A stretch of 64,000 nt of DNA, taken from contig CAYVXD010000002.1 in NCBI GenBank assembly GCA_964454265.1, positions 888 to 64,887 on the forward strand. The letters run 5' to 3'. The DNA is from an uncultured Candidatus Sumerlaeota bacterium. GTDB lineage: Bacteria > Sumerlaeota > Sumerlaeia > MWCT01 > JAUWMI01. Of this stretch, positions 32,578 through 36,809 are shown piece after piece (the stretch's first letter is position 1; every line of letters begins with the position of its first letter). Under the pieces are notes generated by a model. That model worked only from the letters and a program-made list of their open reading frames with translations. It did no database searches and was not told where the DNA came from. A program made the translations under genes and the position numbers.

Positions 32578-32657
32578 GGCAGTGTGATCCTTTATTCGCG
32601 AATTCTTATTCTGTCTTCTTCAACGATCCAGAAATCTTATACTTCATTGTAGAGGCC

Positions 32658-32889
32658 TTACCAAGCGGGGATAGACACTACTCGCTCTCGTGCAAGTTCT
32701 GCTGCATAGCTTATAGCAGATCGAATCGCTTTACGCCCCACGGATGGATAACTTTTCGTAATTTCCTCAGGGGTAAGGCCTACAGCCAGGTTGTCCAGGA
32801 TAACTGAGACCATGACCCTTGTGCCCTTAATGCATGCTTGTCCGTGACAAATAGAAGGATCTACAGTGATATAAGTTTTTCCAGTCCAT
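32658..32889 (-). pseudogene. DUF433 (antitoxin-like) gene, frameshifted in an A5 run
   Basis: Manual translation gives ...[70 protein letters not shown]. The only ATG (32889) is in another frame. Deleting one A of the run (plus-strand T5, 32876..32880) gives [11 protein letters not shown].... A 13-codon stub (MKYKISGSLKKTE*) follows where a PIN-like partner would sit. Confidence 0.6.
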
Positions 32890-33073
32890 ACTTATCTTCC
32901 TTCCATGGTCCTGTTCGGCGTGTTTCCCTTTTGCGATTCATCGCCCACTTCACGGACATCCGACTTGGCGTCAACGCGACGGAATTGTGACAGACGGATT
33001 TCTCCTAGCGGACTCGTCTCGAGACTCTCTCGGCGGTGGGAGAAGACGCACTTGGGTCGCCCCCATCGTGAAT

Positions 33074-34144
33074 TCAGATAACATCAATAACAAGCTCTTT
33101 CGTCACGCTGATCAGCAACAGAGCGAGAGTTATGAAATAATATCCCGTGGAGCTGATTGGAACCAGGTTTAGCATTCGCCTGCCAGGTCCGCACGTTGAG
33201 GTTTGGTTCGTAAGCCGCTCATCGAGAAAAATGGCAGAGTAAATAAAGATGATGGGCAGTGACAACCAGGGAAGCTCGCAAAGGAATGCAAAACCGATTA
33301 AGAGTGGAGCCTCCGCCACAGAAAAGTCCTGTGGTTTCCGCTGATGCAGAAACAGCGATAGCCCAATGAGGGCTACACCGGGTGGTATCGCCACCCAATC
33401 GCATTCGACTTCGAAACGTATCACAAACGCTCCCAGCACAATAATCCCAGCAAGCAGTGCTCCGCGCACAGCGGCAATCGAGAGGCACGCCGGAAGAACC
33501 GACCGGTGGCATCTCAAACTCCGTCTCAATTGCCAGGCGATCCCGTTAAGTAGAACAACCCCGAAAAGAGCGTAAGAAACGGCCGGGTTTAGGTAAGAGT
33601 GCAGAATGAACCCATTGGCGCTCACGTCACGGCATAGCATGAACAACAGAGGATACGACAGAAAACGAACGGTCCGGGGAAGTTCGGTTCGGAGAATGTT
33701 GGGGTTGCGCCACGAGAATCCATCTTTTACCGGAAGTGGGGAACGGAAGGGGAAAAGCAGCGGAACTCGGTTCGCATACTCCTCATATGTTCTCCCAAAC
33801 AGACTCCTCAGCGCAGTTTCTTCGCGGCGCATAGTAGGTAGGTACACAGCACACCACCAGACCGGGAACACGATCATCAGCAGCATAGAGCCGGACATCG
33901 CAACTATTGCTAAGTCAACGAAAATATTGCCGAGGTAGAAGGGGTGACGAACAAACCGATATGGGCCAGAGGTTGTGACGTCTCTATTCTGATGCAGGCA
34001 CCCCTTCGCCCACAGGCGAAGGGTGATTCCCACAAGCAGGAGTAAGGAGCCCACAGCAATACCAAAAGGCGTTACCTGACCGGCAAGCAGGCCAAGTATT
34101 ACTAGGTAGGTGCGAAATCCACCTCGATTACATGGCAAACGCAT
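33074..34144 (-). CDS. Isoprenylcysteine carboxyl methyltransferase (ICMT/PEMT) family membrane protein with extra C-terminal TM domain
   Basis: GPYRFVRHPFYLGNIF...REE-x-x-L-x-x-x-FG-x-x-Y-x-x-Y motif in the N-terminal half. The protein has about 9 TM segments. Confidence 0.7.
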   Translation of the reverse strand: MRLPCNRGGFRTYLVILGLLAGQVTPFGIAVGSLLLLVGITLRLWAKGCLHQNRDVTTSGPYRFVRHPFYLGNIFVDLAIVAMSGSMLLMIVFPVWWCAVYLPTMRREETALRSLFGRTYEEYANRVPLLFPFRSPLPVKDGFSWRNPNILRTELPRTVRFLSYPLLFMLCRDVSANGFILHSYLNPAVSYALFGVVLLNGIAWQLRRSLRCHRSVLPACLSIAAVRGALLAGIIVLGAFVIRFEVECDWVAIPPGVALIGLSLFLHQRKPQDFSVAEAPLLIGFAFLCELPWLSLPIIFIYSAIFLDERLTNQTSTCGPGRRMLNLVPISSTGYYFITLALLLISVTKELVIDVI

Positions 34145-34175
34145 GGCGCAGTCTCCTCACTTGCTTCTCCCGCCG

Positions 34176-34236
34176 AACTATGGTTTATATGCTTTTCGTA
34201 TAAGAACCTTTATGCAGCCAATGAGCGCTATAATAC
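34176..34236. repeat. 61-nt intergenic module, copy R1 (5' of the ICMT-like gene)
   Basis: Reads aactatggtttatatgcttttcgtataagaacctttatgcagccaatgagcgctataatac. Confidence 0.85.
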
Positions 34237-34308
34237 GATTGTCCTTCTCCGCCCATAAGTGATGTGATTGCAATGAAGTAGTGGCGACTTTCCATCCTTC
34301 TTGGGCGC

Positions 34309-34327
34309 TTATATGGTTTCCGTATAG
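34309..34327. repeat. Partial module copy R4 (19 nt identical to R3)
   Basis: Reads ttatatggtttccgtatag. Confidence 0.7.
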
Positions 34328-34396
34328 CATCCATTTAGGCGTTCCTCTTTTTCATTTGGAACTCAATAATCAAGCTTGCCTTCAAACTCTTTTCTC

Positions 34397-34834
34397 TTAT
34401 TTGCCTTTCTTCCTGGTCTTTGCCTTTCTCAGGTATTTCAAATCAGCTTTATCCTGTTCCCTATTTGCTTTTTCCTTGTTCCTGATAAGATCATCGAGCG
34501 AAATATATGATACATTGGCTTCTCCGTATTTACCAGTTGTTCTTTTTGACCAGGCATCTTCAAAACTGCCGATGCCAGAAATACTACTCATTAAATCAAT
34601 CCGAACTGGCGCAACTCCCAGCTGCACGGTGAGGTCGGGATTATATAAGTCAGCGATAGTTAATCCGAGGTCGTATCCACGAAAGAATGCTCGGATGGCC
34701 TTCAGTATCCTGAGCGCAGATTCTGCTGTGGCTTCATGAAGGATATGGATGTTTTTCGTTGCCCTCGGTCTTGCATAGAAAGCGACAGCATGAGCTCCGA
34801 CAATCAAGAACTTAACGCCATTTGCGTTTAACAA
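34397..34834 (-). CDS. Nucleotidyltransferase-fold-like small protein (uncharacterised family)
   Basis: 145-aa ORF (TTG start) reading LNANGVKFLIVGAHAVAFYARPRATKNIHIL. The in-frame upstream sequence DYEEFFE extends the similarity, so the ORF may be fused to 34812..35069 (see findings). Confidence 0.55.
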   Translation of the reverse strand: MLNANGVKFLIVGAHAVAFYARPRATKNIHILHEATAESALRILKAIRAFFRGYDLGLTIADLYNPDLTVQLGVAPVRIDLMSSISGIGSFEDAWSKRTTGKYGEANVSYISLDDLIRNKEKANREQDKADLKYLRKAKTRKKGK

Positions 34835-35069
34835 TTCGAAAAACTCTTCGTAGTCTTGGTGTGCTATTCGCCCCCCTTGTCTTTAGACATCCTAATAAAC
34901 ATGAATCCACAGAGTTAACTCGGTCTTCTGGAGAAAGGCCCTCAAGCCAGAAACGAAAATCTTCTTCTTCGGCCTCGGCCTTAGGCACAACCCTCGCCTT
35001 CCACTTTTTCCCATGTTTGTCTATGCTACTTCCACGTTCCATCATAAGTAGACCCCTTAAGAGCACCAC
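34812..35069 (-). CDS. Small hypothetical protein, overlapping or possibly frameshift-fused with 34397..34834
   Basis: 85-aa ORF. It overlaps the next ORF by 23 nt, and a G6 run (plus-strand C6, 34871..34876) lies at the frame junction. Confidence 0.4.
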   Translation of the reverse strand: MVLLRGLLMMERGSSIDKHGKKWKARVVPKAEAEEEDFRFWLEGLSPEDRVNSVDSCLLGCLKTRGANSTPRLRRVFRIVKRKWR

Positions 35070-35501: not shown

Positions 35502-35512
35502 TTTCGCTACTC

Positions 35513-35573
35513 AACTATTGTTTATATAGATCCGTATAAGAACCCAAATCATGCAAATCTATCAGTATAACAC
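35513..35573. repeat. 61-nt intergenic module, copy R2
   Basis: Reads aactattgtttatatagatccgtataagaacccaaatcatgcaaatctatcagtataacac. Confidence 0.85.
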
Positions 35574-35739
35574 TCCTGTTAATCTCCTTTCTTTTCTTTT
35601 CAACGTTCCGTGCTCACTCGTGTCTTGTAGCTGGTGATTTTATATGGGTCCGGATAATACCCGATTGCAATTCACAAGAGATGTAAGGTGTCCGCTGGGC
35701 TACGAACGCCTCGGGTAATGATGTCCGTTGGATTTATTG

Positions 35740-36078
35740 TTAGCTGCCTAGTATATCTTCAACCTCATTTCGAAGAGTTGGCATACTATCCTTTATGGCA
35801 GACCAGACCGTTGCATCGTCAATGATGTCATAACCATGGACAAGGACGTTGCGAAAACCGATAATCTTCTGATGACCGGTAATTTTGTCTATTATTTCTG
35901 GGTGCTCTCTTTTTAATCTTCTCAACGCCTCGCCAATCACAAGGAATTTGCGCTCTACAGCGGCCTTCACCATGGAATTGTCAGAATATTCTTCAAAACC
36001 CATGTCATGAGTGAATTCTTTGATTTCATCGCACGCCTGTTTAATATCGAAGAGGTAAGCTTTGGGCTCATGATCCAT
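35740..36078 (-). CDS. hepT: HepT-like (DUF86) RNase toxin of a type VII MntA/HepT TA pair
   Basis: 112 aa with the R-x4-H-x-Y motif (RNVLVHGY). It overlaps the upstream NTase gene by 11 nt. Confidence 0.85.
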   Translation of the reverse strand: MDHEPKAYLFDIKQACDEIKEFTHDMGFEEYSDNSMVKAAVERKFLVIGEALRRLKREHPEIIDKITGHQKIIGFRNVLVHGYDIIDDATVWSAIKDSMPTLRNEVEDILGS

Positions 36079-36367
36079 ATATTCGCACCTTGTCTCGATG
36101 TAAGCTTCTTTTAACGTAAGGATTTTTCACTGCGCTTTCCTGAATGACATCAACTTGCCTTCCTAAATGCTGCTCCAGTCGCATTTTCAGTTCAAAGTAG
36201 CGGTCGAAGAGCCTGTCGAAACCAACAAACTCTACGAGGACATCAATATCGCTTCTTTCATGTTGGAAATCATGTCTTGATGCTGAGCCAACGAGATCGA
36301 GGCGCTTCACCCGAAGATCCCTGCAAATTTTTTCGATGACCTGTTTGTGATCTTCTATTTTAAACAT
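36068..36367 (-). CDS. mntA: MntA-like minimal nucleotidyltransferase antitoxin
   Basis: 99 aa with LDLVGSASRHDFQHERSDIDVLVEF (the GS-x10-11-DxD NTase signature). Confidence 0.85.
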   Translation of the reverse strand: MFKIEDHKQVIEKICRDLRVKRLDLVGSASRHDFQHERSDIDVLVEFVGFDRLFDRYFELKMRLEQHLGRQVDVIQESAVKNPYVKRSLHRDKVRIYGS

Positions 36368-36393
36368 CTTCTCTTGCTCTTCCTTCTACACCT

Positions 36394-36454
36394 AACTATT
36401 GATTATATGGTTTCCGTATAGGAACCTTTGTATGTTTTTCTGTCGGTATAATAC
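36394..36454. repeat. 61-nt intergenic module, copy R3 (5' of mntA)
   Basis: Reads aactattgattatatggtttccgtataggaacctttgtatgtttttctgtcggtataatac. Confidence 0.85.
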
Positions 36455-36582
36455 TCCTTGACTCAGCAAAATGTAAAACTAAATCTGTCTTTTATCGAAG
36501 CTTCCTTTGCGGTGCGATGCACGAAGCGAGCTATTCCAATTTTCTGATGCCCCTTTCCCCGCCTGATAATCCCAACAGACTT

Positions 36583-36685
36583 AGAGCCTATCCCAAAAAT
36601 TCTGTCTTCCACAATGTCATTCTGAGAATCTCGCCGTCTTGAGATGCTTCACTCCGTTCAGCATGACAATTTTGGGATAGCCTCT
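36583..36685. repeat. MITE-like nested inverted-repeat element
   Basis: Outer arms are agagcctatcccaaaaatt and aattttgggatagcctct. Inner arms are gtcattctgag and ttcagcatgac. The track ORF 36588..36791 is a translation of this repeat. Confidence 0.7.
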
Positions 36686-36809
36686 TAGACCTGCTATTTG
36701 ACCCAGCTAGTCTGCGCCAGTATCGAAAATAGGGTACAGTCCACGCGCTCGTTCCTCGCTTGGGACAGTCCCCAATTTTTATCTCCCTCATTTCAAATAT
36801 GCCGAAGCA

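Follow-up and report, generated by a model that had tools for sequence, protein, structure and literature searches.

An F1Fo ATP synthase operon is split between atpD and atpC, the genes for its beta and epsilon subunits, in a 64,000-nt stretch of DNA from an uncultured Candidatus Sumerlaeota bacterium (positions 888 to 64,887 of contig CAYVXD010000002.1, assembly GCA_964454265.1; "the window" below means this whole stretch). The gap measures 4232 nt and is filled with accessory genes, referred to here as the islet. Comparison with relatives suggests that the spacer is a recombination hotspot at which accessory units are traded, and that a conserved stretch of DNA in front of many such units, the head element, is a horizontally spreading module of the mobile-promoter type. 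On balance, this account is probably correct. The hotspot is well supported; we infer the promoter function of the element, the mechanism of shuffling and the route by which atpC is expressed. The head element is widespread, undescribed and present on many cargo units, and it is new relative to an earlier note, made from the letters of the window, in which the split was first remarked on.

The split between atpD and atpC and the turnover of its cargo

The part of the operon upstream of the break is intact. The genes atpZ-atpI-atpB-atpE-atpF-atpH-atpA-atpG-atpD follow one another without interruption on the minus strand, from 43899 down to 36810, as the earlier note had read them. This layout is borne out by the open reading frames (ORFs), with atpZ at 43899-43663 and atpD at 36810-38210 (Pfam ATP-synt_ab, 2e-74), by colinearity with the loci L082 and L083 at 78-83% nucleotide identity, and by the Pfam families ATPase_gene1, ATP-synt_A, _C, _B, OSCP, ab and gamma, which were found on the L082 and L083 homologues. 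The note had placed atpC 4.2 kb beyond atpD, with same-strand genes between them, and this too was confirmed: atpC lies at 32290-32577 on the minus strand and encodes a 95-aa epsilon with the beta-sandwich domain only (Pfam ATP-synt_DE_N, 3e-25; TIGR01216, 79.4 bits against a cut-off of 67.25). Both the beta and the epsilon domains are therefore present in the window, atpC does not directly follow atpD, and all the cargo between them is on the minus strand. A SurA-like peptidyl-prolyl isomerase gene begins 4 nt past atpC (31072..32286, minus strand; Pfam Rotamase and SurA_N) and is syntenic in the locus L081. The GC content across the islet, which the note had proposed to check, is 0.458, falling to 0.426 over 34145-36809, against 0.518 for the operon. 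The closest matches of the window AtpD are to proteins named Sumerlaeota, Hydrogenedentota and Omnitrophota, and its best 120 include no Planctomycetota.

Evidence for the rarity of the split came from 80 loci across the bacteria that were fetched by AtpD, 79 of which extend past atpD and are informative. With tblastn, atpC was found 4-215 nt past atpD in 62 of the 80, and an epsilon profile placed it directly after atpD in the remaining 17 loci that reach past atpD. Adjacency of the two genes, which the earlier note had called nearly universal, thus holds in 79 of 79 loci, with a gap of at most about 220 nt. The split was seen only in a small clade of uncultured bacteria from sediments, with AtpD identity of at least 91%, consisting of the window, L081 (AtpD 94%) and L082 (AtpD 91%). 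The nearest relatives outside this clade, L086 and L087 (AtpD 82% and 81%), carry a 91-aa atpC at a gap of 16-22 nt. Because this short atpC adjoins atpD, the short epsilon is a trait of the lineage and the unsplit order is ancestral. Epsilon lengths in the split and neighbouring clade range over 86-95 aa (window 32290-32577, L081 7761-8021, L086 11474-11749, L087 2118-2393), and all four proteins keep the beta-sandwich domain and lack the C-terminal helical domain. The C-terminal helical domain of epsilon mediates inhibition of ATP hydrolysis.

The cargo differs in each of the three split lineages. The window carries 4.2 kb, comprising an mntA/hepT pair, a membrane-protein ORF, a DUF2204 nucleotidyltransferase gene, an ICMT-like gene and a DUF433 gene. 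L081 carries 5.2 kb, with a 336-aa ORF, a fragment of a type IIG restriction-modification (RM) gene, PDDEXK_3, GNAT and HAD genes, a 191-aa ORF and a dCMP deaminase gene, followed by atpC (86 aa) and the SurA-like gene. L082 carries more than 7.2 kb, a lower bound since its contig ends before atpC, with a 66-aa ORF, DUF2204, TIR, a 999-aa type IIG RM gene and more. The synteny comparison that the earlier note had suggested thus shows that the gene content of the spacer is not common to the three lineages. The blocks that are shared across lineages are few: the DUF2204 module, one copy of the head element (element A), the left arm of the first element, and an RM-gene fragment in L081 and L082.

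The clearest evidence for recent exchange of cargo is the DUF2204 module, an 85-aa upstream ORF plus the nucleotidyltransferase (34397..35128, minus strand; the DUF2204 gene itself at 34834-34397, by Pfam). Positions 35128-34397 of the window are 93% identical over 733 nt to L082 10235-10967, and dS for the DUF2204 gene is 0.14, compared with 0.89-1.24 for the atp genes of the same two lineages, which are 76-84% identical at the nucleotide level. As this dS lies far below that of the atp genes, the module moved between the lineages recently, and it did so into the same spacer. The window copy has since lost its start codon, with ATA in place of the ATG of the intact L082 copy; the gene is not frameshifted. 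Together with a TAG-interrupted ORF and an out-of-frame DUF433 gene, this makes three decayed cargo genes in the window, which argues that cargo arrives and decays here.

The gene beyond the cargo has a different history. Between the window and L081, atpC shows a dN of 0.073 and a dS of 0.574 (dN/dS 0.13), and dS is 0.64 for atpD and 0.66 for the SurA-like gene. Given this core-like dS and the low dN/dS, atpC has been inherited vertically with its neighbours under purifying selection, and it is a functional copy rather than a relic. The window and L081 share about 30 conserved nt on the 5' side of its start codon, which mark the right edge of the variable region. The claim of the earlier note that foreign cargo has colonised a core operon is therefore upheld, since the relatives' spacers differ and atpC is no relic. 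Its picture of one inserted islet was too narrow, as the spacer turns over, with recent horizontal exchange.

Anatomy and distribution of the head element

The head element is 70-200 nt long, has the core consensus GGTTCTTATACGGAAACCATATAATCAGTAGTT, and ends about 15 nt before a start codon. About 30 nt upstream of the core is a second direct copy of the 8-nt motif TTATRYGG, usually GTTATGCGGACAG, and beyond it lie left arms that are specific to subfamilies. The overall architecture is two direct copies and one inverted copy of the motif together with a perfect TATAAT. Sequence conservation stops 8 nt past the TATAAT, about where transcription would start. The GTT at the 3' end is nearly invariant, TAGT having been part of the search pattern, and the bases that follow are purine-rich and variable. 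Some copies continue with GTTATGC or GTTATAC after a spacer and so complete an inverted pair, CCATATAA-N7-TTATRYG.

The window contains three strong and two partial copies, all inside the islet and none elsewhere in its 64 kb. Element A (36389..36489, minus strand; full copy 36462-36391, core 36426-36394; nhmmer 4e-16) lies just upstream of mntA and matches L082 11004-11104, located before an unrelated TIR gene, at 88% identity over 101 nt. A promoter scan found a sigma70-like TTTACA-18-TATTAT in element A, and no stable fold was found for it (z -0.3). Repeat and profile searches identified two composite elements further on, both on the minus strand: the first (35512..35662) consists of a partial core-prime copy at 35656-35639 and full copy B at 35581-35512, and the second (34174..34335), upstream of the ICMT-like gene, of core-prime copy C at 34335-34309 and full copy D at 34241-34174. 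The partial core-prime copies sit about 90 nt upstream of B and of D. The window therefore holds an array, in the sense of at least two same-orientation sites within a few kb, with copies at 36462, 35581 and 34241. In both L081 and L082, which carry copies at equivalent places, the first element after atpD has homology to the left arm of element B, and the C and D composite shares its long-form architecture with subfamily (i) of the metagenomic copies. An ICMT-like homologue in L144 is headed by the same type of element.

A scan of JGI metagenome contigs with a degenerate pattern matched at least 120 contigs. While a few matches of the lowest GC look like chance, convincing copies occur in contigs with a GC of about 0.38-0.64, and the AT-rich core is kept even at 0.56-0.64. 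One host is a Sedimentisphaerales-like planctomycete (Planctomycetota), as judged by its IleS. The 1.4 Mb of loci taken from 80 other genomes contain no head element, and neither do the unsplit relatives. The element was not found in plasmid or phage collections either, and viral contigs gave one match, probably by chance; a phage or plasmid origin was dropped on these grounds. The core sequence was not found in the literature, and the literature on integrons and Planctomycetes gave nothing specific. Two further readings of the element were abandoned. As an RNA it gave nothing in Rfam searches, in which neither the islet nor seven element-bearing loci had a match in Rfam 15 at gathering scores or at E-value thresholds, and as a coding sequence its frames showed, by eye, no codon-like variation.

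Among the matches listed, a same-strand ORF begins a median of 15 nt past the element, and the 107 complete ORFs have a median length of 171 aa. In the same set, 110 downstream ORFs of at least 60 aa fall into 95 protein clusters, and their Pfam families are a mixture of NYN, PEMT/ICMT, TIR, LRR, methyltransferases, Eco57I and many DUFs. Most contigs carry a single copy; about 25 loci carry two or three in the same orientation, 0.3-1.7 kb apart. At one syntenic site, identical flanks enclose a single unit in L103 and two different ones in L108, and no element follows the last unit of the array. In each of the five contexts of a 98-aa gene, the right half of the core has stayed with the gene and shows matching variants, and the left arm has been exchanged; the contigs L095 and L124 differ by such a swap, with core and gene staying together. 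On the upstream side, the closest gene shares the strand of the element in 38 of 63 cases and is divergent in the other 25 (40%). Because the upstream gene is so often divergent and the downstream gene keeps its half of the core, the element heads transcription units and goes with the gene downstream of it.

Some copies depart from this anatomy. In L108 (4015-4140) about 100 nt with a GGTGGGGCAAGCCCCACC hairpin have been inserted into a head element and interrupt it, and similar hairpin insertions are found in the left arms of L119 and L192. In L117, L152 and L100, which have long forms of the element, a good sigma70-like TTGACA-17-TATTTT lies about 200 nt upstream of the core, and in these three the whole element could be a transcribed leader rather than a promoter.

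Travelling promoter or recombination site

Putative mobile promoters have been defined as stretches of 50-100 nt with at least 80% identity that lie directly upstream of non-homologous genes, within or between genomes (Matus-Garcia, Nijveen and van Passel 2012, PMC3488235). The head element qualifies as one by that definition, because element A and its L082 counterpart share 101 nt at 88% identity in front of mntA and a TIR gene, respectively, and because the 110 downstream proteins belong to 95 clusters. Its promoter activity is putative, and is suggested by the TATAAT of the core and by the TTTACA-18-TATTAT of element A. In the mechanism that we favour, small units of accessory and defence genes would be gained, lost and exchanged between lineages, and left to decay in the spacer. 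The head element would be a promoter or operator module that spreads horizontally, either travelling with accessory genes or being recruited in front of them, and its repeated copies may serve as patches of homology for the shuffling of units. Throughout, atpC and the SurA-like gene have stayed a functional, vertically inherited unit.

Several observations weigh against this mechanism. No convincing -35 box was found in the core of the element, and part of the conservation profile follows from the degenerate search pattern, which included TAGT. Some mobility at the level of DNA is required, since a regulon alone would not hold 100-200 nt at 85-90% identity before unrelated genes; an enzyme for such mobility was not found among the window ORFs or among 528 ORFs neighbouring the element. 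The direct repeats, the inverted repeat and the terminal GTTRRR resemble a recombinase site of the attI type as much as an operator. In addition, no head element accompanied the DUF2204 module when it moved, and the module does not begin or end at element edges, so the hotspot is not strictly dependent on the element.

The main rival is the interpretation of the element as a recombinase site, as the repeat architecture would suit it equally well. This would be the attachment site, at the 5' end of each cassette, of an undescribed site-specific capture system that works on double-stranded DNA as an analogue of the integron, with cassettes circulating among Planctomycetota and other sediment phyla and the atpD-atpC spacer as one array. 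A recombinase encoded elsewhere would bind the repeats of TTATRYGG, of which two are direct, one is inverted and a fourth, degenerate one follows a 7-nt spacer, and strand exchange would take place in or next to the core. The arrays in about 25 loci are consistent with such a system, as are the different units between identical flanks in L103 and L108, the swapping of left arms in L095 and L124 with core and gene still joined, the inverted pair completed in the GTTATGC/GTTATAC subset, and the conservation of the core over a GC of 0.38-0.64. The repeats and the terminal GTT-purine-rich junction may resemble the DR1-DR2-L-R arrangement of attI1. Nevertheless, no recombinase domain was found by Pfam in the 28 large ORFs of the window, and clustering of the 528 neighbouring ORFs together with a scan for tyrosine-recombinase motifs revealed no recurrent recombinase, but one relic only (L143/L093). 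Moreover, the junctions do not fall at one fixed position, most contigs hold a single copy, often with a divergent gene as its neighbour, and no site is present at the end of the arrays. We consider a capture system of this kind unlikely. A classical integron array lacking an integrase (a cluster of attC sites lacking integron-integrases, or CALIN), with the elements as attC sites and IntI encoded elsewhere, is very improbable, even though the small, promoter-proximal, same-strand genes are typical of cassettes (toxin-antitoxin, GNAT, DUF), the terminal GTT of the element and the purine-rich but variable bases after it recall the R' box GTTRRRY, and one copy has the relic, an IntI-like C-terminus, about 125 nt upstream of it. 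The last of these is not specific evidence, as the relic is one of thousands of recombinase fragments of 66-119 aa. Folding of the bottom DNA strand over 85-215 nt gave mean z values of -0.4 to -0.8, no better than shuffles; single copies fold weakly, and alifold on 113 copies yields no consensus structure. In 76% of copies the 8-bp palindrome contains a C·A mismatch, and no compensatory changes emerged from the pair statistics. The element is linked to the downstream rather than the upstream gene, 40% of its upstream neighbours are divergent, and no site follows the last unit of an array. Its sequence is conserved across very different hosts, while attC sites are conserved in structure rather than sequence. 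An attC identity was accordingly rejected after inspection of R''/L''/L'/R' boxes by eye, folding, alifold, pair statistics and shuffle z-scores, which gave no stable or covarying fold, and no intI, which a complete integron would have beside its array, was found among the 28 large ORFs of the window. A co-variation of CTAC with GTAG in the element (p 0.03, uncorrected for relatedness) was too weak to be used.

The travelling-promoter account also has to be set against two interpretations that invoke insertion. The head element could be a non-autonomous transposable element with an outward promoter, either a miniature inverted-repeat transposable element (MITE) or a palindrome-associated element (PATE) of the IS200/IS605 type, that inserts upstream of genes while cargo varies independently. 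Its copies are indeed discrete units of about 100 nt with different neighbours on both sides, as in element A, and subfamilies have conserved ends and variable interiors. In the long forms, a pair of similar palindromes lies subterminally in direct orientation, and the 3' boundary follows the second of them by 9 nt, a layout that we take to be like IS200/IS605 ends. However, neither terminal inverted repeats nor target duplications were seen, the palindrome is not a stable hairpin, the 5' ends differ between subfamilies, and no partner transposase was found. Random insertion would also not place the element always about 15 nt from a start codon and in the orientation of the gene, and this explanation is accordingly improbable. 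We give almost no credence to the proposal that the islet is one ancient insertion held in place by mntA/hepT as an addiction module, or that the split is an assembly chimera. An intact toxin-antitoxin-like pair is present and the window comes from a metagenome-assembled contig, but the relatives L081 and L082 keep the split with different cargo and without mntA/hepT. This makes stabilisation by the pair, which the earlier note had put forward, superfluous. As for a chimera, three independent assemblies show cargo after atpD, and one shows the order atpD-cargo-atpC-surA. The islet is also no assembly accident because two JGI contigs reproduce parts of it: L096 is 100% identical to window positions 35311-36804, and L133 is 99.9% identical to 33737-34891.

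Other comparisons concerned the element and the relic. Possible resemblances of the element to a T7 promoter, hix, dif, Tn7 ends and the Geobacter LexA box were partial and were dropped. The relic itself, the C-terminus of an IntI/XerD-like tyrosine recombinase (L143 51-806, L093 383-802), matches thousands of proteins of 66-119 aa at 76-87% identity, from many phyla and contigs of many sizes.

Cargo genes, atpC expression and known systems

Two hairpins precede the first cargo gene. A decayed palindrome lies just 3' of the atpD stop codon (36724..36786, minus strand; -18.1 kcal/mol, z -1.2). Its L081 homologue is a strong terminator-like hairpin (-26 kcal/mol, z -3.1, then UUUUCAG), and the palindrome is absent in L082. 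The second, a long imperfect inverted repeat of 121 nt (36575..36695), is what the earlier note had called a MITE-like hairpin. The hairpin is real (-43.5 kcal/mol, z -4.5); its identity as a MITE is putative, as no second copy was found in the window or the fetched loci except in L096, which duplicates this stretch of the window. A match of the hairpin to Rfam mir-5045 (E 0.04, 25.9 bits against a gathering score of 80 bits) was dismissed as chance. It also holds a reading frame of the AERSEASQ type, which is seen in many metagenomic repeats.

The genes that the earlier note had named in the islet were recovered by Pfam or by reading of the sequence, all on the minus strand. The mntA gene (36068-36367; Pfam NTP_transf_2, PADLOC PDC-S09) and hepT (35740-36078; Pfam HepT-like, 1e-22) overlap by 11 nt, and the catalytic motifs GSx(n)DxD and Rx4H are visible in their translations. 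With adjacent genes, Pfam scores above cut-off and these motifs, they belong to the type VII toxin-antitoxin MntA/HepT family; since they score below cut-off for the NCBIfam MntA/HepT equivalogs, they are family members rather than exact equivalogs. The small membrane-protein ORF (35142..35501) starts 11 nt after element B and, with an in-frame TAG at 35396-35394, is likely a pseudogene. The ICMT/PEMT-like membrane methyltransferase gene (33074..34144; Pfam ICMT and PEMT) scores below cut-off for the NCBIfam LmtA, ICMT and MddA models and has a host-like GC of 0.52. The DUF433 gene (32658..32889), which the note had described as frameshifted, has 76 codons of in-frame translation matching Pfam DUF433 and an ATG one base out of frame, due to either pseudogenisation or a sequencing error. 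In the L081 islet, the PDDEXK_3 gene (4100-4830) has ACCACAAAGACAC-like repeat units on both sides, and this stretch looks like a separate small mobile or repeat-flanked unit. Outside the islet, at 46469-49533 of the window, a tRNA-Pro(CGG) is followed on the plus strand by genes for a KAP-family P-loop NTPase (47107-48408) and a SIR2_2-like protein (48577-49533). This region looks like a second, tRNA-linked defence islet, and there is no head element in it.

With this cargo in the way, expression of atpC would depend on read-through, whether from atpD or from the last cargo unit, or on a weak promoter that arose at the edge of the islet. No convincing intrinsic terminator was predicted on the minus strand inside the islet, the one minus-strand site in the scan being within the ICMT-like ORF. 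A weak candidate promoter for atpC, TTGGTA-17-TATAAG (32636..32664, minus strand), was found by eye; it fails the rule of the promoter scanner, as its second hexamer lacks the final T. In L081, a half element (GAACGTTATACCGGATGACAGTGA) lies at 7690-7760, just before the native atpC leader. Read by eye, GAACGTTATACCGGATGACAGTGA and the native sequence together form ATGACA-17-TATATT, a possible promoter for atpC in that lineage.

The adjacency of the beta and epsilon genes is among the most constant of bacterial gene orders, and kilobases of changing foreign DNA are tolerated there in this clade. Even an essential operon can therefore host a hotspot of gene exchange, which raises the question of epsilon stoichiometry when its gene is uncoupled from the operon. 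The head element, for its part, is a conserved and unannotated DNA module that precedes about a hundred accessory and defence genes with no relation to one another, and the base composition of its hosts varies widely. As no more than a travelling promoter, it would be an instance of promoter reuse on a large natural scale; as a recombination site, it would define a new cassette system among uncultured bacteria of sediments.

The arrangement has parallels in several known systems. Like putative mobile promoters (PMC3488235), the head element is a conserved non-coding stretch before non-homologous genes. It differs from them in marking units in variable arrays at hotspots, in its elaborate repeats and long composite forms, and in occurring in hosts of very different GC. 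Integron arrays and CALINs share with the spacer their small, miscellaneous, same-strand genes, a repeat ending in GTT and purine-rich bases near the next start codon, the lack of an adjacent integrase and a content that varies between relatives. Unlike theirs, the element described here has no attC fold, is conserved in sequence and accompanies the downstream gene; it often stands alone next to a divergent gene and does not follow the last unit. As in chromosomal integration hotspots and defence islands, the same core pair flanks differing cargo (HepT/MntA, TIR, type IIG RM, PDDEXK) of lower GC with pseudogenes among it, but this hotspot lies inside an essential and normally unbroken operon, between beta and epsilon, and is not marked by an integrase, a tRNA or a transposase. 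Split atp operons are themselves familiar from the atp1 and atp2 clusters of cyanobacteria and chloroplasts and from the separation of F1 and Fo genes in alphaproteobacteria, and in those cases beta and epsilon stay adjacent. The operon described here likewise does not keep its F1Fo genes in one cluster, but its break falls exactly between beta and epsilon and is filled with foreign genes.

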